A DNA stretch of 64,000 bases from an uncultured Pseudomonadales bacterium (GTDB lineage: Bacteria > Patescibacteriota > Microgenomatia > UBA1400 > CAYXSR01): positions 23,244 through 87,243 of the forward strand of contig CAYXSR010000001.1 of NCBI GenBank assembly GCA_964467735.1. The letters run 5' to 3'. The notes beneath the pieces are model-generated. The model saw only the letters and a list, made by a program, of their open reading frames with translations. It was not told the origin of the DNA and did not search any database. Of this stretch, positions 50,726 to 58,954 are shown in pieces (position 1 is the stretch's first letter; every line of letters begins with the position of its first letter). The translations under genes and the position numbers were made by a program.

Positions 50726-51742
50726 TTAATCGGATAAGTATTTTTGAATATTCTCGTTTTGTTCATCTAACGTTTTTGAGAAGTGTATTTTACCATATTC
50801 GTCTGATAAGTAAAACCAATAATCTGTTTTCTGTGGCTGAAGGGCTGCTTTTAAAGATGAAAGTCCAGGATTGCAGATAGGTGTAGGAGGTAAACCTTGA
50901 TTTTTATAAGTATTATAAAGTGATTCCACTTCTAAATCACTCCCTTTTAACTGAGGCCAAAAGTTACATTGATCTTTTAAATTCCGGCAATTCTTTCCTC
51001 CTACTATGTATTGAATCGCCGCATCCACTTGAAGAGGCCAATTGTTTTCCAACCGCTTTACTAAAATACCACTAACTAAATAACGATCAGATTCATACTT
51101 TGCTTCTCTTTCTATTAGTGAAGCTAGAGTAACTATTTGTTGATAAGAAAGCTTAGATGAAAAAGATAAAGAAGACATCTTATCTTCAAAGTTTTTTTTA
51201 AAAATTTCAATTATAGTTTCCGTTGAACCATCTTTGGGAATTAGGTAAGTATCCGGAAATAGGAATCCTTCTAAAGAAGCAGTTTTCTCAATAAATTCTG
51301 TTTTGTCAAACTGTCCGCCTGTTTTACTAATTTCCTTTTCTAAAATTAAAGCTATCTCCTCTCTTCTTATACCTTCTGGAATGGTTATTGGGACATCAAA
51401 ACTTCCACGAGTAAGTTGTTGGGCAATTTCAAAAGTATTCATTGAAGGAGAAAGATAGAAATCGCCAGCTTGGATTTGGCGACTTAGCCCCTCTTTAAAA
51501 ACTAAAATTTTAAAAACTAAATCACTCCTAATTAAATTATTTTCTTTTAATCCTTCAGCTACTTTATTGGCTCCCCACCCTTGAGGAATAATAAAAAGGG
51601 TCTTTTCACTATTTTTTTTATCTATCGGGCTTGTTTCTATTTGCCACCAAAATAAAAAAATCAAAAAACAAAAACTGAAGAATAATAGAAAAGAAAAAAC
51701 GAAAGCACTAAATAGTTTAGGAAATTTTTTCTTTTTGCCCAT
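50726..51742 (-). CDS. mltG: endolytic murein transglycosylase MltG (YceG family)
   Basis: N-terminal TM anchor, YceG-like domain. Conserved pairing with ruvX. Confidence 0.75.
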   Translation of the reverse strand: MGKKKKFPKLFSAFVFSFLLFFSFCFLIFLFWWQIETSPIDKKNSEKTLFIIPQGWGANKVAEGLKENNLIRSDLVFKILVFKEGLSRQIQAGDFYLSPSMNTFEIAQQLTRGSFDVPITIPEGIRREEIALILEKEISKTGGQFDKTEFIEKTASLEGFLFPDTYLIPKDGSTETIIEIFKKNFEDKMSSLSFSSKLSYQQIVTLASLIEREAKYESDRYLVSGILVKRLENNWPLQVDAAIQYIVGGKNCRNLKDQCNFWPQLKGSDLEVESLYNTYKNQGLPPTPICNPGLSSLKAALQPQKTDYWFYLSDEYGKIHFSKTLDEQNENIQKYLSD

Positions 51743-51759: not shown

Positions 51760-51966
51760 TTAAACCTCTTCGAAAAGTGCTCTTCTATATTTGCCGGTCT
51801 TTTGGTCATGGATAAAAATCCTGCCGCATTTACAAGTAATTTTCTCAATATTTCCTTTTTTCTTAACCTTTCCCTTTCTAAGGGGCATTCCACAACCAAC
51901 ACATTGACCTCGAGACAGTAACCAAGCTTGGATAGGAGCAATAATATTTTTTAACATTATTAACAA
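51760..51966 (-). CDS. small zinc-ribbon protein (hypothetical)
   Basis: 68 aa with CVGCG...CKCG. Sits between ruvX and mltG. Confidence 0.4.
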   Translation of the reverse strand: MLIMLKNIIAPIQAWLLSRGQCVGCGMPLRKGKVKKKGNIEKITCKCGRIFIHDQKTGKYRRALFEEV

Positions 51967-52002: not shown

Positions 52003-52398
52003 TCAGTCAAGTTTTCTAATGCCTTCAAGATAATTTTCTAAAATTAAACACGCAGAAATTTGGTGTTCTAAGTTTTTTTTACTTTTCTTTTTTTTTCCTA
52101 ATTCAATCATTGTTTTTATTGAGTCTTTTGAACTAAGATCCTCGCTAACTAGTATGGGAGTAAAATTTGTTGCCTTAGAAAGTTTTTGAGAAAAATTCTT
52201 AACTAAAGACGCAATCTTACCTTCTGGTAAACCGATTACTATTTTATCTATTTTTTCTTTTGAAATAATCTTCAAAACTTCTTTTAAAAGCATCTCATCA
52301 TTTTTCTTTTTAAAGCTTGCATATGGAGATATTAACCCATTATAGGCAATTGCAAAACCAATATTTACTAAACCATAATCAATTCCTAAAATATTCAT
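52003..52398 (-). CDS. ruvX: putative pre-16S rRNA nuclease / Holliday-junction-resolvase-like YqgF (RuvX)
   Basis: MNILGIDYGLVNIGFAIA...KIVIGLPEG. Start taken at the internal Met. Confidence 0.8.
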   Translation of the reverse strand: MNILGIDYGLVNIGFAIAYNGLISPYASFKKKNDEMLLKEVLKIISKEKIDKIVIGLPEGKIASLVKNFSQKLSKATNFTPILVSEDLSSKDSIKTMIELGKKKKSKKNLEHQISACLILENYLEGIRKLD

Positions 52399-53189
52399 TC
52401 TCTGATTAATCTTGCTTTTATAATTCCCCTCTTTTGGTAGGTACCAGGAGGAACGCAAGTTATTAAACTCAAAACTTGTTCATCAAATTTCTGTTGAAGA
52501 ACTTCTATTTCTTCTGGATTCACTTCAAAATATTTTTCTACCTGATAAACAAATTGAATTCCATCAAAATCAAGATAGATTTTATCACCTTTTTCCAAAG
52601 TCGGGATTGTGGAAAAAATCGTTTTATAATCTTTCGGGTTGTAAAAAATTGGCAACACTGAATGTCCAAAAACAACTGAGTTCCCATATTCGCCAGGCAA
52701 AGCTGTTCCTGGATAATGAATTAATTTGCTTTTAATTTCTCCCCCCCCAATTTCTACAATTGCATCTCCAATATCTAACTTTGGGATAGAAAGAGTATAG
52801 TGGGTAATTTTACTTTCTCTTGGAGAAGGTAAGGAAGCACTCGGAAACCAATTGTTTATTTGTTCTAAATCAAGTCCTTCTGTTACTACAACATTATCTT
52901 CTTCTTTAGCTACAGCAATGCTTTTAGAAGATATTAAGGGATTTATAAACCCCTGAGCTTCGGCAACAGAAATATCGGCTATCGGACTAATGATTCTTCT
53001 TTGATTTTTTGAAAAAACCAAAAATCGATAACTAATAAAAGGATAAATTGTCAATAAAAGAAGAAACAAACCTCCTGTTATAAATAAAGGAGCTGTTTTT
53101 CGAAATAATTGTTGGATTGATATTGTCGCTATTAATCCTTCTTTTGTAGTTGATGGTTGTGCTTTAACGTAACAATAAATGGCAGACAT
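52395..53189 (-). CDS. sortase-family transpeptidase
   Basis: N-terminal TM anchor, catalytic His (VVFGHS), sortase signature LSLITCVPPGT (TLxTC) and downstream Arg (KARLI). Confidence 0.7.
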   Translation of the reverse strand: MSAIYCYVKAQPSTTKEGLIATISIQQLFRKTAPLFITGGLFLLLLTIYPFISYRFLVFSKNQRRIISPIADISVAEAQGFINPLISSKSIAVAKEEDNVVVTEGLDLEQINNWFPSASLPSPRESKITHYTLSIPKLDIGDAIVEIGGGEIKSKLIHYPGTALPGEYGNSVVFGHSVLPIFYNPKDYKTIFSTIPTLEKGDKIYLDFDGIQFVYQVEKYFEVNPEEIEVLQQKFDEQVLSLITCVPPGTYQKRGIIKARLIRE

Positions 53190-53190
53190 T

Positions 53191-55446
53191 TTAATCTGTT
53201 TTGATTTCTATATTAATATTTTTTAAATTATAAGGAATGTTTTTTCTAATTAATAATTTTTGAGGAGTTAATAAAATTTCTGCTTTACTAAAATTAGGTA
53301 AAGTTTTTAAATATGCTTCTGCTTCCACGGGTTTAAGTCCTTTTAAATTTTCTCTTATTTGTTCGATATTTAATCTAGGAATAAGCTTTATTTTTGCATC
53401 AGTTTGTAAAAATACTGTGTTTTTCTTAGTGCTAGTTTCTATAATCTCAAAATCTATTTGTGAATTATCAAAATCGTAGCCTTCTGGGATAGATTCAGCA
53501 AAAATATCTTTTAAGAGAGATGATAATTCTTTAGTTTCATAAACAAAACCGGTTAATTTTAATTTTAATTCCAAACTAATCTTGTCTGCCTCATCACCCT
53601 CTTGAGCAGAAAATTTTTTCTCTAGAACTTCTATTTCTTCAGATATAATTATTTGTTCTGATGAAGAAATCTTACTCTTAATTTCTTGTTTACCTTTTTC
53701 TATTAATTCGTCGGTAAGTTCTGCTAATAAATTCTCCATATCTTTCTCATCAACAGCTTTAATTTGTCTACTCATACCCCCACTCAAACCTTCATCAGTT
53801 TTAGCACTATATAATGATGATGGATATTCCTTAAAAGTAAAATCACTACCAGCAGATAAATTATATTCTGCACCAATAGAAGCAGCTACAACTTTAACTT
53901 GTTGTTTCCCATAAACAATATTTTCTCCTTCTTCGGTAGCCTCGCTTGATTTGGAAGCAACCGTTACTTCTTCGTCTAAAAGAAATTTCAAATCGTCGCC
54001 ACCAATTAAAACAGCTCCCTTATTAAAAACTTTCTCGGTATCTGTTTTATTGAAAATTGTTATCTCGCCTGTGGCTTTATCGCCAATAAGTTTTTCCCCA
54101 GTTGTTTCTTTTGACTTATTACCATTAACTTCTTCTTGCACTTCATTAGCTTTCAAAAAAAATGAATCATCCTCTATTTTTGATTCTGAGGCTAAAGTAA
54201 CTCCTATCTCTTTATCTAAATTTTTGGGGGAAACAAAAATTAATATTTTTGCTTTTGGTAGATACCAAAAAGTGGCAAAAGCCAAAATTGTCAAAAAACC
54301 TAAAAATAATAATAAAAGACTTAAGAACATAAATTTTTTCTTCCTATTTTTAAAAGAAAATGAAAACAATCTAAAAGAAGACAAAACTCTTTTTATTCCT
54401 CTTATAATTAACAGTGGGTTCAGGCTAAATTTCGTTTTCTCTAGATTTCTACCTGTTATTTGTATTTCTGGAGAAACCGAACGAAGATTATCTAATTCTT
54501 CTTTAGTTACCTTCTGTTCTGGTTCAACAGTGGGTAGTTCTTTACTATCTAAAATATCGCCTCCAACTTTGAATCCTAGTTCTTCTGCTCCGGTTATTGA
54601 TTCTGTCTGTTCTTGTTCTTCATCTGGTGTTTCTGAAGAAGTTTCTTCTTTTTCTTTTGTCAATTCTTTAGTCTCTTCCTCTACAATTTCAAAACCTAAA
54701 GATTTGGCTATTTCTGCTCCTCCAGCAACAACTACCGCTTTAACAGCAATATTTGACTCTAATGTTTCTATTTTAGGAAGATGTAAAAAATTGAGTTCCG
54801 CCTGCCAATCAAAAGAGATCAATTGTTGTTTAGCTTCTTCAAAGTCAACTATCCCATCAAAAACAATTATTCTAGCTGGAAAAGTTTTGTCTTTACCAAA
54901 ACGATTTAATCCTTCATTAACATCAGCAGCTAAATCTTCGCTCCTCCCAACTAACTGTGATTCTTTGATTCTTCCAAATTCTACCCAAAAAATTGTTGCT
55001 TGAGTCTCTTCTAAACCAACAAAAATTGCATTAACAGGAACGCCTTCTTCTTTTTTTAAATACTCTAAAAGAGCTTCTAAAGTAACTACAAAACCTAATG
55101 GTTTTAAAGCTAGCTTCTCACATAAAGATTTTAGTAAAAGCTTTTTACTCGCTATTATCTGAGAACCTGAAGTCCACTCTTGAGGTAAACCAAAAATGAT
55201 TGCTTTTGGCTCAGGATCAAGTCCTTCACCGGCACTACTGATTGTTTTATCAACTGCCTGAAGAAAAGATTCTTCACTTTCACCATCCCATTCTTCTGTA
55301 GAACTCAATTTTAAAGTTACTGTTTTCCCTTCTTTTACCGCCCAAACAGCAGATTTAACAGTTTCTTGAGCAATTTCTAAAGCAAAAAAAGTCTCTTGTT
55401 GTCCTTTCTTAGTTGCAAATCGAGAGATAATATTTTTCAATTCCAT
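53191..55446 (-). CDS. bitopic membrane protein: N-terminal cytoplasmic degenerate actin-like (ASKHA; PilM/FtsA/GspL-like) domain, acidic linker, single TM, large extracytoplasmic domain
   Basis: Residues about 15-250 show the actin-fold pattern: FALEIAQETVKSAVWAV for the first hairpin, ...LGFVVTLEALLEYL, GLEETQATIFWV in place of DxGxxxT, VVVAGGAEIAKSLG. TM at about residues 350-375 (FMFLSLLLLFLGFLTILAFATFWYL). About 375 aa outside. Confidence 0.45.
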   Translation of the reverse strand: MELKNIISRFATKKGQQETFFALEIAQETVKSAVWAVKEGKTVTLKLSSTEEWDGESEESFLQAVDKTISSAGEGLDPEPKAIIFGLPQEWTSGSQIIASKKLLLKSLCEKLALKPLGFVVTLEALLEYLKKEEGVPVNAIFVGLEETQATIFWVEFGRIKESQLVGRSEDLAADVNEGLNRFGKDKTFPARIIVFDGIVDFEEAKQQLISFDWQAELNFLHLPKIETLESNIAVKAVVVAGGAEIAKSLGFEIVEEETKELTKEKEETSSETPDEEQEQTESITGAEELGFKVGGDILDSKELPTVEPEQKVTKEELDNLRSVSPEIQITGRNLEKTKFSLNPLLIIRGIKRVLSSFRLFSFSFKNRKKKFMFLSLLLLFLGFLTILAFATFWYLPKAKILIFVSPKNLDKEIGVTLASESKIEDDSFFLKANEVQEEVNGNKSKETTGEKLIGDKATGEITIFNKTDTEKVFNKGAVLIGGDDLKFLLDEEVTVASKSSEATEEGENIVYGKQQVKVVAASIGAEYNLSAGSDFTFKEYPSSLYSAKTDEGLSGGMSRQIKAVDEKDMENLLAELTDELIEKGKQEIKSKISSSEQIIISEEIEVLEKKFSAQEGDEADKISLELKLKLTGFVYETKELSSLLKDIFAESIPEGYDFDNSQIDFEIIETSTKKNTVFLQTDAKIKLIPRLNIEQIRENLKGLKPVEAEAYLKTLPNFSKAEILLTPQKLLIRKNIPYNLKNINIEIKTD

Positions 55447-55460
55447 TTTGGGCAGTTAAG

Positions 55461-57299
55461 TTATTTTAATACAGCATAAATCCGACGCTTATTGGCGCCG
55501 CTTGATTCTTCTTTTATTATTTTAAAAGTTCCTAGCTGTCCTGTAAAGTCAACATGAGGACCACCACAAACTTCCTTTGAAAAAATTTTATCTACATCTT
55601 TTGAAGATTTGCCAATTGAAAAAACTTTTACCTTTTCTGGATATTTTTGACCAAAAAAAGCCAAAGCTCCTTGCTTTTGGGCATCTTTTAAGGACATCAC
55701 TCTACATTCTACTTTCAAATTATTTTTAATTTGTTCATTAACTAAAGTCTCTATCTTCTCCTTTTGCTCCTGAGTTAGTTTTTCAGGATGAATAAAATCA
55801 AAACGCAACCTTTCGGTTGTGATATTAGAACCTATTTGCTGGATATGTTTACCAAGCACCTGTCTTAAGGCCGCATGAAGCATATGAGTAGCAGTATGGA
55901 GTTTAACTACTTGAGTTGATTGGTCTTGTAATCCACCAGAAAATTTCTGCTTCATGCCTTTCCGAGAAATCTCTTGATGGTTCTTCATCTTCTGATTAAA
56001 TTCTTTTAAGACCTTAGCTCGATCAAAGGAAAATTTCCTTTTCTTTGCTTCCTCAAAACTTAATTCAATAGGAAAACCATAACTTTCATAAAGAAAAAAA
56101 GCAGTTTGACCATCAAAAACCTTTATTTTTTCAAATTCGCTTAAACCTTTATTAATTGTCCAAAGAAATTTTTCTTCCTCTTCTGTGATAACTTTACTAA
56201 TTTGAACTTGTTTTTCTTTTAATTCCTTATAAGTATCCCAATAAATACTTAAGAAATTTGCTGATAAAAGTTCTACACATAGCTGCTGAATACCTAAATT
56301 ATGTTTAGCATAAAAAATAGCGCGCCGTAAAAGTCTTCTAAGAATATAACCACGATCTTTATTAGAAGGTTCTACCCCATCAATAATCATAAAAATAATT
56401 GCTCTTAAATGATCAGCAATAATTCGAAATTCTAACTGATAGTTTTGATAACTTTTACCTGATTGCTTCTCTAATTTATTAATCACAGGAGAAAATAAAT
56501 GTGTCAAAAATGGATCTGGTTCTTTTATTTTGCCATCTAGCCACTCTGTTAAAGCAACTACTCTTTCTAATCCCATACCCGTATCAACGTTTTTTTGCTT
56601 TAAAGGTTGAAAAGAATTTTCTCCAGTTTTGTTATATTCCATAAATACATCATTCCAAATCTCCACCATCCGACCACAATCACAGTTAGGATGACACTTA
56701 CCCGAACATTTTCCTTTCCAAGATTTGCCAGTATCATAAAACATTTCTGTACTTGGACCACAAGGACCGGTTTGACCAGCTGGTCCCCACCAGTTTTGTT
56801 TTTTAGGATAAACGAAAATTCTTTGATCCAATTGAGCCTTTACTCCTCTTTTTCTAAAAACTTCTTGCCAAATAGCAATTGACTCCTCATCCCTATGAGC
56901 ATCTTTATCTCCCTTAAAAACTGAGATGTAAATTTTTTCTGGATTTAAACCTAACCATTTTTTATTAGTTAAAAATTCAAAAGACCATTCAATCGCTTCT
57001 TTTTTAAAATAATCACCTAAGCTCCAATTACCTAACATTTCAAAAAAAGTAAAATGAGTCAAATCACCTACTTCTTCAATATCATCTACTCGAACACATT
57101 TTTGGACTGAGCATAATCTTTTACCTAAAGGATGAGACTCACCCATTAAATAACGTACCAAAGGACTCATTCCTGCTGGAGTGAATAAAATTGTCGGATC
57201 ATCCTCGGGAATTAAAGACACTGATGGAATTTGCTTATGACTTCTTGGAGACTCAGTAAAAAAATCAATATATTTCTGTCTTAACTCATTTGCTTTCAT
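55461..57299 (-). CDS. alaS: alanine--tRNA ligase, short form (catalytic + tRNA-binding + editing domains; no C-Ala domain)
   Basis: FTPAGM, HFTFFEMLGNWSLGDYFK, editing-domain HTATHMLH and CGGPHV. Only about 612 aa. Confidence 0.85.
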   Translation of the reverse strand: MKANELRQKYIDFFTESPRSHKQIPSVSLIPEDDPTILFTPAGMSPLVRYLMGESHPLGKRLCSVQKCVRVDDIEEVGDLTHFTFFEMLGNWSLGDYFKKEAIEWSFEFLTNKKWLGLNPEKIYISVFKGDKDAHRDEESIAIWQEVFRKRGVKAQLDQRIFVYPKKQNWWGPAGQTGPCGPSTEMFYDTGKSWKGKCSGKCHPNCDCGRMVEIWNDVFMEYNKTGENSFQPLKQKNVDTGMGLERVVALTEWLDGKIKEPDPFLTHLFSPVINKLEKQSGKSYQNYQLEFRIIADHLRAIIFMIIDGVEPSNKDRGYILRRLLRRAIFYAKHNLGIQQLCVELLSANFLSIYWDTYKELKEKQVQISKVITEEEEKFLWTINKGLSEFEKIKVFDGQTAFFLYESYGFPIELSFEEAKKRKFSFDRAKVLKEFNQKMKNHQEISRKGMKQKFSGGLQDQSTQVVKLHTATHMLHAALRQVLGKHIQQIGSNITTERLRFDFIHPEKLTQEQKEKIETLVNEQIKNNLKVECRVMSLKDAQKQGALAFFGQKYPEKVKVFSIGKSSKDVDKIFSKEVCGGPHVDFTGQLGTFKIIKEESSGANKRRIYAVLK

Positions 57300-57359
57300 A
57301 TGAAGAAATTTTAGCAAATAAGGCCAGAAATTAAAAGAAGATTATGATTTACTAAAAAT

Positions 57360-57632
57360 TTACTTTCTTCTTTGTTTTTCTACAGAAATTGTACACTCTG
57401 TAACTAAAGCGGCAATCGCCCCAACCGCTGCTAATACCGGTGCTACTACTGCTCCAACAACTCCAATACTTAAAGGAAAATTAATCAATGTTTTTCCTTT
57501 TTTATCCTTAATGGTAATTTTTCTTACATTACCTTCTTTGATTAACTCTTTTACTTTCTTTACCAATTCTTCACCTTTAACTCTAAATGTTTCTTTATCT
57601 ATTTTTATCCCTTCTTTTTTACATCTAGTCAT
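57360..57632 (-). CDS. DUF4342-family small membrane protein
   Basis: EGNVRKITIKDKKGKTLINFPLSIGVVGAVVAPVLAAVGAIAALV pattern. Confidence 0.5.
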   Translation of the reverse strand: MTRCKKEGIKIDKETFRVKGEELVKKVKELIKEGNVRKITIKDKKGKTLINFPLSIGVVGAVVAPVLAAVGAIAALVTECTISVEKQRRK

Positions 57633-57654
57633 TTTTACCTCCTTTTAAAAAATA

Positions 57655-57966
57655 TTATCTTTTTAAAACTTTACCATTTTTAACAAAAAATTTTTTGACT
57701 CTTATCACTTTTTTGGCAACTTTTTCTTTTAGACTATTACCATCTTTTTTTGGCGCTTCCAATAATTCTTTTTTACCTTCATTGAATAGATCTTCCAATT
57801 CTTCCCAAAGGTTTTTTCCTTCTTTAAAAAGCTTTTTCTTTAATTTTTTTCCTTTTTCTGTTCTAAGAAAAAAATTAGATACCCCACCAAGCACTACACC
57901 AACAACCAATCCCGTTAAGAATCCATTATCTTTGGAACTTTCACTCTCTGGATTATTCTGCTCCAT
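57655..57966 (-). CDS. YtxH-like protein
   Basis: GFLTGLVVGVVLGG N-terminal helix followed by coiled coil. Confidence 0.5.
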   Translation of the reverse strand: MEQNNPESESSKDNGFLTGLVVGVVLGGVSNFFLRTEKGKKLKKKLFKEGKNLWEELEDLFNEGKKELLEAPKKDGNSLKEKVAKKVIRVKKFFVKNGKVLKR

Positions 57967-58219
57967 TTTTAAAAAGCTCAGAAATTGATTTAAAAGTTTT
58001 TATTCCTCTTTTTAAACCTGCTAAAAAAGTTGAAGCTTCTTCTATGGGCTCACTAATCATGTGACTAACTTTTTTTAAATCTTGAAGCATATTATTAACA
58101 TTAGTTAAACTCTGTCGTAATTCTCTTAATACTTTAAAAACTTCTATACCAATAATTGTCAATACTGAGGTAAGAATTGTTATTACAATAATAAGAAGAA
58201 TTTGGACAGCATCAATCAT
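57953..58219 (-). CDS. DUF948 (YtxG-like) membrane protein
   Basis: N-terminal TM followed by coiled coil. Clustered with YtxH-like as in the Firmicutes ytxGHJ locus. Confidence 0.45.
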   Translation of the reverse strand: MIDAVQILLIIVITILTSVLTIIGIEVFKVLRELRQSLTNVNNMLQDLKKVSHMISEPIEEASTFLAGLKRGIKTFKSISELFKNGAE

Positions 58220-58267: not shown

Positions 58268-58954
58268 CTAGTCGCTGTTGTCAACTAGTTCAACTTTTCT
58301 ATTAATAATTTTTTTCTTATCGTGACGATTTACTGCACTAACAACAATCACATTTTCCCCAGGAAAAAGTTTAAATTGATAATTAAATCTACCTTCATCA
58401 TCAACATTAATTAATTTATCATTTATAAAAATCGATGTTTCTTTTTTAGTCTGGCCACTTATACTAATTTTCTCTTGAGTAAATTTTTCTCCTTCTTTTG
58501 GTTGATCTAACTTCAGCATCGGTAGACCATAAAAAGTCTTTAATTGAACAATAATGTAAAAAATTAGCAATAAAAAAATAAGAGCACATATTCCAATAAT
58601 TCCAGTTTTTGGTATCCAGAATTTTTCTTGCCAGTTTTTAAGAAAACTTTTTGGGATGACTTTTTCATCGTTATCTTTTCTTTTCGCATCGCGTCGAAAT
58701 ATTGCCACCATCCTTTTAGGATCTAGTCCTAAAAAATCGCTATAAATTTTTATAAACCCTTCTATAAATGGTGCAGATGGTAGTTTAGAAAAATCGTTTT
58801 GCTCTAAAGCAATCAAGGTTTTCAAAGGAATTAAAGTCTTCCTTTGAACCTCTTGTAGTCTTTTCTTTTTTTTAATTCTTTCTTTTTTTAAAATCTCAGC
58901 AAGGGTTTTCATCTTAAATTCATTGCTCTGTGGCAGAAGGGTTTTCTTCTTCAC
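58268..58954 (-). CDS. RodZ-like protein (N-terminal HTH, TM, C-terminal DUF4115-like domain)
   Basis: HTH LKTLAEILKKERIKKKKRLQEV, single TM at about residue 130. Confidence 0.55.
   Translation of the reverse strand: MKKKTLLPQSNEFKMKTLAEILKKERIKKKKRLQEVQRKTLIPLKTLIALEQNDFSKLPSAPFIEGFIKIYSDFLGLDPKRMVAIFRRDAKRKDNDEKVIPKSFLKNWQEKFWIPKTGIIGICALIFLLLIFYIIVQLKTFYGLPMLKLDQPKEGEKFTQEKISISGQTKKETSIFINDKLINVDDEGRFNYQFKLFPGENVIVVSAVNRHDKKKIINRKVELVDNSD

Follow-up and report, generated by a model that had tools for sequence, protein, structure and literature searches.

Scaffolds that combine a cytoplasmic actin-like domain with a domain outside the membrane are known from GspL and from PilM plus PilN, in which the outside domain is ferredoxin-like and about 100 aa long. 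FtsA is carried to the membrane by a C-terminal amphipathic membrane-targeting helix and uses its 1C and 2B subdomains for partner recruitment and FtsZ binding; the part of FtsZ that it binds is the C-terminal peptide. The wedge proteins of the baseplate J/gp47/gp6 family self-assemble into rings. For sortases, a precedent for neighbours that bind and stabilise the enzyme is SafA of Actinobacteria, a membrane protein whose gene adjoins that of the housekeeping sortase and which attaches to this sortase via an exoplasmic aromatic-Pro motif (PMC9282373). Sortase is near-ubiquitous in Microgenomates, and CPR bacteria generally have PilM, PilN and PilO co-localised with pilus genes (PMC6744442); the report on one complete Microgenomates genome mentions a single sortase, and in that genome PilM is encoded separately, within the one type IV pilus locus (PMC7143001).

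In the window, i.e., the whole 64,000-nucleotide stretch of DNA that was analysed, the list of open reading frames and a reading of the DNA place alaS, a 751-aa open reading frame (hereafter X), a sortase gene, ruvX and mltG in series on the minus strand. Because X is encoded just before the core sortase of the lineage, it is probably a cell-envelope scaffold, and we infer a lineage-specific protein that works with this housekeeping sortase. The features of the locus, all on the minus strand, are as follows.

55461..57317, minus strand: alaS (context only), 618 aa, from the open reading frame and Pfam; 14 nt upstream of X
53191..55446, minus strand: gene X, 751-aa bitopic protein, stop codon included; open reading frame, with homologues aligning from residue 1 to the end
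54682..55404, minus strand: minimal actin-fold (ASKHA) core of X, residues about 15-255, with a degenerate nucleotide site; AF2 model
54418..54681, minus strand: acidic disordered linker of X, residues about 256-343; pLDDT 33-50, 25 D/E against 11 K/R in 88 residues
54553..54582, minus strand: short linear motif in the linker, residues 289-298 'ELGFKVGGDI', conserved within an otherwise unconserved stretch
54256..54345, minus strand: single TM helix of X, residues 368-397, with the predicted exoplasmic exit motif YWYxPKA; AF2 helix 368-394, hydropathy peak 369-397
53194..54255, minus strand: predicted extracytoplasmic baseplate J/gp47/gp6-like domain of X, residues 398-751; Pfam, PHROG and structural matches
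52395..53189, minus strand: sortase gene, 264 aa, with cytoplasmic tail, TM helix, linker and catalytic barrel; Pfam Sortase (PF04203), 84.5 bits, E 6.5e-24
53154..53180, minus strand: sortase residues 4-12 'IYCYVKAQP', a motif in the cytoplasmic N-terminal tail (pattern YxYxKxxP); 39 orthologues
52842..52853, minus strand: sortase residues 113-116, an exoplasmic NWFP motif preceding the catalytic barrel; 39 orthologues
52003..52398, minus strand: ruvX (context only), from Pfam; its ATG has a 4-nt overlap with the sortase stop codon
50726..51742, minus strand: mltG/YceG (context only), peptidoglycan strand-terminating lytic transglycosylase; YceG E 4e-74

The TAA stop of X is separated by 1 nt from the sortase ATG, and the sortase TGA and the ruvX ATG are merged in the sequence ATGA, so that 52398 is the true ruvX start; the gene order and the 4-nt overlap given in the preliminary description are thereby borne out. 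The AF2 model of X (mean pLDDT 83) contains a folded N domain (residues 15-255), the acidic linker at low confidence (260-344), one helix (368-394) and a confidently modelled, folded C-terminal domain (398-751), reproducing the architecture previously read from the sequence. The linker varies in length and sequence among family members; its embedded motif follows the pattern acidic, hydrophobic, G, F, xxxx, D, I/V, with G291 and F292 at least 90% conserved, and is also seen in the locus-derived X sequences. At the exit of the TM helix, W394 is at least 90% conserved and P397 is invariant. A KNRKKK cluster on the N-terminal side of the helix, together with domain logic, suggests an N-in, C-out topology. 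X was rejected as a sortase substrate, since its sequence contains no LPXTG-like motif with a hydrophobic stretch and a basic C-terminus behind it. The idea that the juxtamembrane 'WYxPKA' supplies the lysine nucleophile of a YPKN-like pilin motif was likewise discarded, as several orthologues have R, H or S in place of K398.

The N domain, about 240 residues in the AF2 model, is built of two beta-beta-beta-alpha-beta-alpha-beta-alpha halves with no 1C- or 2B-type inserts and no insert between beta3 and alpha1, so that the duplicated ASKHA core fold claimed for it is present, and its top structural match is FtsA. The nucleotide-binding motifs, assessed over 45 family members, are degenerate. 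The phosphate-1 DxG hairpin is not kept (FFALEIAQETVK): E24, which lies in 'FFALEI' and is at least 90% conserved, replaces the Asp, the Gly position is variable, and the following K31 is conserved. Nor is the phosphate-2 DxGxGT hairpin kept (residues 140-153, AIFVGLEETQATIF); at the position of 'VGLEETQAT' in X the family consensus is 'AIFxxLxxxE', with no conserved Asp or Gly family-wide. Both replacements noticed earlier in the single sequence (E for D, and GLEETQAT for DxGxxxT) are borne out. The adenosine motif, placed by motif position and not by structural superposition, reads 'RIIVFDG' in X and 'ILYNG' in the consensus, with one Gly, G198 (~80%). Given the loss of the phosphate-2 loop, the N domain is most likely a non-catalytic protein-binding module.

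Membership of a known actin-like family was rejected at the sequence level. The FtsA and SHS2_FTSA models gave no Pfam or NCBIfam match at E<=1 to X or among the 45 members, Pfam gave no PilM_2, GspL or MreB match to X or to the members, and PDB sequence searches, whether started from X alone or from the family profile, returned noise only. Structurally, X has the minimal core without the extra subdomain of GspL and PilM, and it lacks the 1C and 2B subdomains of FtsA and has lost the phosphate-2 loop. Whereas FtsA has an amphipathic helix, X has a true TM helix followed by a large ectodomain, and this ectodomain is baseplate-J-like and about 350 aa long, unlike the outside domains of GspL and PilM-PilN.

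The preliminary description had assigned the ectodomain to no recognisable family, a view that does not hold, as a baseplate J/gp47-like domain spans its full length. Baseplate_J (PF04865) scores 16.3 bits (E 0.006) against X itself, below the gathering cut-off of 21.1, but among 45 family members it matches 27 at E<=0.01, the best of them at 2.3e-6; PHROG_6 matches at E 4.5e-4; and the multi-domain wedge-protein fold of baseplate J/gp47 is present in the structure. Compared with Mu gp47, P2 gpJ, T4 gp6 and diffocin TRI-2, the domain in X would be extracellular on a cell, behind an N-terminal TM anchor, and is encoded without partner wedge, hub, sheath or tube genes; X also shows no BLAST-level phage similarity and is vertically inherited in a housekeeping operon.

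In the adjacent sortase, the catalytic triad H176, C245 (in LITC) and R254 is invariant in 39 orthologues. Neither HMMs nor structure settle its class: NCBIfam scores are 51.8 (class C), 46.2 (class E) and 45.1 bits (class D) against cut-offs of 160-165, hence below every class cut-off, and Foldseek returns class D, C and A structures nearly tied at E ~1e-11, with many pilus-type class C enzymes among the closest. The enzyme carries two motifs of its own. Across the 39 orthologues the cytoplasmic tail has an invariant K9 and a Y7 conserved to at least 90%, the conservation being weaker in the 75-sequence locus set; in the NWFP motif, W114 and F115 are invariant and P116 is at least 90% conserved. 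Locus L003 encodes a second, accessory sortase that adjoins an SpaA/SdrD-type surface protein and has neither the YxYxK tail nor the NWFP motif.

X belongs to a large, full-length and vertically inherited family. A word index returned 191 homologues, and cluster searches 11,427 representative clusters (3,451 of them at E<=1e-30). The observation is not due to chance: many homologues align over the full length at 27-47% identity. All named matches fall in Microgenomates (Beckwith-, Chisholm-, Ames-, Shapiro-, Davies-, Gottesman-, Woese- and Pacebacteria), a large uncultivated class of ultrasmall bacteria whose envelope biology is almost unknown, and the gene appears to be part of the conserved core of this class. 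The sortase is the next gene after X in 74 of 80 related loci (72 by automatic count plus L031 and L044, whose overlapping coordinates the count missed), mostly at an intergenic distance of -4 to +20 nt, and alaS adjoins X in 70 of 75 loci by automatic count, with five listed exceptions, of which L003 is an artefact because alaS there overlaps the start of X. The whole block from ftsK to rpoB is syntenic, and its junctions are broken at similar rates (alaS-X at most 5/75, X-sortase 6/80, sortase-ruvX 8/74). In a Daviesbacteria-like subclade, X stays with alaS, the sortase-ruvX-mltG segment has moved away, and a PMT-type GT-C glycosyltransferase and a GDSL hydrolase occupy the place of the sortase. 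Of the earlier proposal of a dedicated cell-surface assembly module, the linkage to a sortase thus stands, whereas the word dedicated does not, in view of the equally tight ruvX overlap, the syntenic block and the subclade with no adjacent sortase. Neither of the two outcomes that the preliminary description had named as refuting it, an N domain with no ASKHA fold or related genomes with no conserved sortase linkage, was observed.

The Baseplate_J, PHROG_6 and structural matches, together with the name 'baseplate J/gp47 family protein' that NCBI gives to some family members, could mark X as a genuine baseplate gene left by a prophage, tailocin or contractile injection system. Its context effectively refutes this reading: no tail or contractile-injection genes (wedge, hub, sheath, tube) lie beside X in the loci examined, whose neighbouring genes are alaS, sortase, ruvX, mltG and ftsK; the gene keeps the same housekeeping position throughout a bacterial class; and a TM helix joins its baseplate domain to a cytoplasmic one. 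A prophage or phage origin was further rejected on the finding of no relatives on 2.9 million viral contigs, no tblastn match in 50,697 GenBank phage genomes and no PADLOC match. It is improbable, too, that X is a host-contact or adhesion receptor whose ectodomain binds a host-cell or surface ligand while the actin-fold domain relays or anchors the contact. The use of this domain family in phage adsorption organelles, the dependence on cell-cell contact thought to mark CPR bacteria (PMC6744442) and the faster evolution of the ectodomain (mean distance 1.38 vs 1.16 for the N domain and 0.86 for the sortase) would fit a receptor; however, baseplate J proteins are structural wedge components and not themselves receptor binders, the gene sits in a housekeeping operon, and the many invariant Gly, Asn and Ser positions of the ectodomain are not those expected of a host-range determinant. 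The preliminary description had raised a pilus or surface appendage. The architecture of X, with its cytoplasmic actin-like domain, one TM helix and outside domain, parallels GspL and PilM plus PilN, and pilus-type class C enzymes are among the closest structures of the sortase. Even so, we regard it as very improbable that X serves as a PilM-PilN/GspL-type alignment part in a machine for type IV pili or competence, or that it forms the base on which a sortase assembles a pilus: X has no PilM_2 or GspL match in Pfam, its ectodomain is not of the PilN/PilO/GspL ferredoxin-like kind, and CPR bacteria, including the complete Microgenomates genome, keep a separate PilM in a type IV pilus locus (PMC6744442, PMC7143001). 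In agreement with the earlier remark that the window holds no other type IV pilus genes, pilB, pilC, pilT and pilin genes are absent from the window and from four Pfam-annotated related loci, as are pilN/O/B/C or gsp neighbours of X. Crude scans of the window and of 84 loci for proteins with a C-terminal sorting signal gave antisense or irrelevant ORFs only, so that the pilus or appendage idea gained no positive evidence; no pilin or sorting-signal substrate lies beside the X-linked sortase, and it is the other sortase of L003 that adjoins an SpaA-type protein.

Two scaffold readings differ in the part given to the sortase. We tentatively favour X as a single-pass envelope scaffold forming an oligomeric platform that positions the core sortase and is coupled to wall synthesis. 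The cytoplasmic minimal FtsA/PilM-type core would bind proteins, the acidic disordered tether would offer its hydrophobic-GF-xxxx-D motif for docking, and outside the cell X would display a domain homologous over its whole length to the phage/tailocin wedge protein J/gp47/gp6. Presumably co-transcribed with the housekeeping-type sortase, X might hold or position this enzyme, and perhaps other envelope enzymes, on a membrane platform placed relative to the wall and division machinery encoded nearby (ftsK, a RodZ-like HTH_25 protein, mltG), so that surface proteins would be attached at sites of new wall. Oligomerisation is suggested by analogy with FtsA, PilM and gp6, and physical contact with the sortase, like the coupling to wall synthesis, is likewise conjectural. 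The degenerate ATP site, the large and vertically inherited family, the 74/80 linkage, the sortase's own tail and NWFP motifs, the lack of an adjacent substrate gene, the near-ubiquity of sortase in Microgenomates, the envelope and division neighbours, the envelope enzymes found where the sortase is absent and the SafA precedent count for this reading. The equally tight sortase-ruvX overlap, the similar breakage of the three junctions, the subclade in which X stays with alaS alone and the ambiguous class of the sortase count against it, and the two genes may lie side by side through inherited synteny alone. The alternative, which we consider somewhat unlikely, is an envelope, divisome or elongasome scaffold independent of the sortase, i.e., an FtsA-like TM adaptor linking FtsZ, MreB or RodZ to a wall-binding ectodomain, with the sortase beside it merely through inherited operon structure. 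It would accord with FtsA as the top structural match, with the same neighbours, with the even conservation of all block junctions, with the retention of X in the subclade lacking an adjacent sortase, and with ectodomain distances whose strongest correlations are to mltG (0.71) and ruvX (0.66) rather than to the sortase. Against it, X has no FtsA, MreB or PilM sequence-family match and lacks the subdomains 1C and 2B through which FtsA works; moreover, X and the sortase evidently arrived jointly in the interval from alaS to ruvX, and the conserved cytoplasmic tail of the X-linked sortase needs a cytoplasmic partner. A bolder form of the sortase-positioning platform strikes us as distinctly unlikely: X as the core of a trans-membrane ring or platform across Microgenomates, a domesticated baseplate-wedge domain fused to an FtsA/PilM-type pseudo-ATPase, which would capture the sortase N-terminal tail as PilM captures PilN and constitute a new sortase-organising surface-assembly machine.

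If X does organise this near-universal sortase, it would rank as only the second trans-acting partner known for a sortase, SafA being the first; X resembles SafA in its predicted N-in, C-out topology, in its place directly beside a housekeeping sortase and in an aromatic-Pro minimotif at the exoplasmic face (FPW in SafA, WYxP in X) (PMC9282373). The likeness is confined to adjacency and topology, as X is not a small TM protein encoded downstream with an FPW motif: SafA, at 52 aa and without soluble domains, is encoded downstream of srtA, whereas X, at 751 aa, is encoded upstream and is non-homologous. X would likewise show a phage-baseplate-type fold at work as a cellular surface scaffold. Literature on sortases, baseplates, actin-like proteins, Patescibacteria, Microgenomates and Saccharibacteria yielded no description of the protein; a baseplate mention in a soil preprint was set aside, as it concerned a contractile injection system of Myxococcota. 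Databases name the family only 'hypothetical' or 'baseplate J/gp47 family protein' and leave its FtsA/PilM-like half unannotated, an annotation, corrected here, through which CPR surveys could mistake X loci for prophage or tailocin genes. Streptomyces GlxA, a copper oxidase with a propeller domain, has only a beta-barrel domain in common with X. In an exploratory mirror-tree comparison, distances of the X N domain track the sortase closest of all neighbours (r 0.68-0.69); this signal, which pairs a cytoplasmic with an extracellular domain and is confounded by phylogeny, may reflect lineage-specific rate shifts rather than contact, and we do not rely on it.

Housekeeping genes fill the window (RNase J, ftsK, a RodZ-like HTH_25 protein, alaS, ruvX, mltG, rpoB, rpoC, ribosomal proteins, recA and RNase Y), which is low in GC (about 0.32); the gene for a 751-aa bitopic protein (hereafter X) lies among them. 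The genes around X are arranged as follows.

58268-58954, (-): RodZ-like bitopic protein with HTH_25, one transmembrane (TM) helix and a Glucodextran_B-like domain; overlaps the end of ftsK
57360-58219, (-): three small genes between the rodZ-like gene and alaS
55461-57317, (-): alaS, 618 aa
53191-55446, (-): X, 751-aa ORF
52395-53189, (-): sortase, 264 aa
52003-52398, (-): ruvX
51760-51957, (-): 65-aa zinc-ribbon-like ORF (CxxC...CxC) between ruvX and mltG
50726-51742, (-): mltG

Read directly from the DNA, the TAA stop of X is followed by a single base and then the sortase ATG, and the sortase TGA stop overlaps the ruvX ATG start as ATGA. X and the core sortase sit in a co-transcription-like arrangement among wall and division genes. 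Because the ORF order and these junctions match the preliminary description, its coordinates and its account of the locus are correct.

Across 84 related loci, the block ftsK, rodZ-like gene, small genes, alaS, X, sortase, ruvX, zinc-ribbon ORF, mltG and rpoB is strongly conserved. The sortase is the gene directly after X in 74 of the 80 loci with enough downstream sequence (72 counted automatically, plus L031 and L044, whose overlapping coordinates the automatic count missed), mostly at a spacing of -4 to +20 nt. The exceptions are L082 and a Daviesbacteria-like subclade (L062, L068, L070, L073 and L075), in which alaS-X leads not into the sortase-ruvX-mltG block but into genes for a PMT-family GT-C glycosyltransferase and/or a GDSL hydrolase. 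This glycosyltransferase, of 640-675 aa, also carries a MecA_N-like NTF2 domain. However, the neighbouring junctions are about equally stable, being broken in at most 5 of 75 loci for alaS and X, 6 of 80 for X and the sortase and 8 of 74 for the sortase and ruvX, and the sortase-ruvX overlap is as tight as the X-sortase abutment; that X and the sortase are neighbours is therefore not in itself proof of a functional pairing.

The X family is real, conserved and uncharacterised, and we found no description of X or its architecture in the literature. A word-index search returned 191 homologues, mostly full length, and an exhaustive HMMER search matched 11,427 representative clusters at E≤1e-3, of which 3,451 reached E≤1e-30; the best 150 of the 11,427 are nearly all full length (700-820 aa). 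Among GTDB species representatives, 159 relatives were found and 80 loci were kept, assigned to Beckwith-, Chisholm-, Ames-, Shapiro-, Davies-, Gottesman- and Woesebacteria or unnamed Patescibacteria, plus genomes with evidently mislabelled titles; no member outside the Microgenomates group was seen among the matches listed. X is inherited vertically across the class. Many representative assemblies with a Microgenomates-type locus are titled "uncultured Gammaproteobacteria", "Pseudomonadales", "Nevskiaceae" or "Bathyarchaeia archaeon" (e.g., L005, L009, L010, L014, L016, L024-L026), which looks like mislabelling or mis-binning. The family was not found among 2.9 million viral contigs, tblastn gave no match in 50,697 phage genomes, PADLOC gave no match, and X occupies one fixed housekeeping position across related loci. 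X is therefore not a phage gene, and the reading of it as a remnant of a prophage or tailocin is effectively ruled out.

An AlphaFold2 model of X, built on an alignment of 45 full-length homologues, has a mean pLDDT of 83 and shows four regions.

Residues 15-255: N-terminal domain, confident
Residues 260-344: acidic stretch, low confidence; 25 D/E in 88 residues
Residues 368-394: helix, preceded by KNRKKK
Residues 398-751: C-terminal domain, confident

The N-terminal domain has an actin-like fold, and the ectodomain resembles the baseplate J/gp47/gp6 family. Sequence models of FtsA, PilM, GspL and MreB match neither the window protein nor the 45 family members, so the resemblance of X to these proteins is at the level of fold only. 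As the preliminary description had proposed, the nucleotide site is degenerate: the phosphate-1 hairpin reads FFALEIxxxxVK, with Asp replaced by E24 (at least 90% conserved), and the phosphate-2 hairpin AIFVGLEETQAT shows neither a conserved Asp nor a conserved Gly in any part of the family. Of the adenosine motif, as assigned by motif position, a single Gly seems to be left. Judged from these motifs, the N-terminal domain is reasonably inferred to be non-catalytic, and X is probably a scaffold rather than an enzyme. Its predicted orientation has the N terminus inside and the C terminus outside the cell. The combination of an FtsA/PilM-like pseudo-ATPase, a TM helix and a baseplate-J ectodomain is not described elsewhere; bitopic actin-fold scaffolds such as GspL are conceptually its closest likeness. 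One short stretch of the acidic linker, which is otherwise unconserved, follows a family pattern (acidic, hydrophobic, G, F, xxxx, D, I/V; residues 289-298) with G291 and F292 at least 90% conserved, and looks like a candidate docking peptide. The TM helix carries a YWYxPKA motif at its outer end, with W394 at least 90% conserved and P397 invariant; it was rejected as a pilin-type lysine motif because R, H or S often replaces the Lys.

The X-linked sortase is a genuine sortase (Pfam, 84.5 bits; H176, C245 and R254 invariant). It scores under every NCBIfam class cut-off, and its predicted structure (mean pLDDT 80) matches classes D, C and A almost equally well. Outside the catalytic barrel, two elements are conserved: a cytoplasmic N-terminal tail, YxYxKxxP, with invariant K9, and an exoplasmic NWFP motif. 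Both are missing from the second sortase of L003, a related locus, in a single comparison; that sortase lies after mltG, next to a SpaA/SdrD_B-domain surface protein longer than 1,600 aa. The FtsK of L003 carries an intein (Intein_splicing and LAGLIDADG_3).

L003:1-2715: FtsK intein
L003:10665-14373: second sortase and surface protein

A scan of the window and the 84 loci found no proteins with C-terminal sorting signals near the X-linked sortase. Published surveys report sortases as near-ubiquitous in Microgenomates (PMC6744442), and the paper on one complete genome of the group names a single sortase as well as MreBCD and, at a separate locus, type IV pilus genes including PilM (PMC7143001). 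On these grounds, the X-linked sortase is best read as the housekeeping sortase.

The structural findings on X are solid. That X works together with the sortase is a reasonable hypothesis, under which X would organise envelope enzymes, the sortase or others, with respect to the wall and division proteins of the cytoplasm. FtsA and PilM self-assemble, as do gp6/J family proteins; since both end domains of X belong to self-assembling families, X may plausibly form an oligomeric platform. The conserved cytoplasmic sortase tail suggests that it could be captured by the actin-fold domain in the manner of PilM:PilN. The one precedent is SafA of Actinobacteria, a sortase partner encoded beside the housekeeping sortase, which binds the sortase via an exoplasmic aromatic-Pro motif (PMC9282373); SafA and X are analogous in position and topology, but not homologous. 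In an exploratory mirror-tree analysis of 52 loci, the N-terminal domain correlates in its distances most closely with the sortase (r 0.68-0.69), and the ectodomain with mltG and ruvX; this counts as weak evidence.

Nearly as likely as this main explanation, and itself tentative, is that X serves as an envelope or divisome scaffold independently of the sortase. A role as a host-contact receptor is doubtful. The pilus component suggested in the preliminary description is unlikely, because the ectodomain is not PilN/O-like, neither pilus genes nor pilin substrates are linked to X in the loci examined, and Microgenomates have their own PilM.

Several features of the neighbourhood recur beyond the window. 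The rodZ-like gene precedes alaS in nearly all of the related loci, and the zinc-ribbon-like ORF, which has no Pfam match, keeps its place in most of the 84 by tblastn. The alaS product is short, matching only tRNA-synt_2c and tRNA_SAD in Pfam, and its homologues in related loci measure 592-634 aa. A 350-aa ORF antisense to X (53951-55003, (+)), serine- and leucine-rich and lacking gene support, is a spurious low-GC antisense artefact. Of the three small conserved genes, one encodes an 88-aa membrane protein without a match in Pfam, and the products of the other two are a YtxH-like and a DUF4342 protein. In the annotated related loci, small genes again stand at this place upstream of alaS, YtxH-like ones among them, but the set varies.
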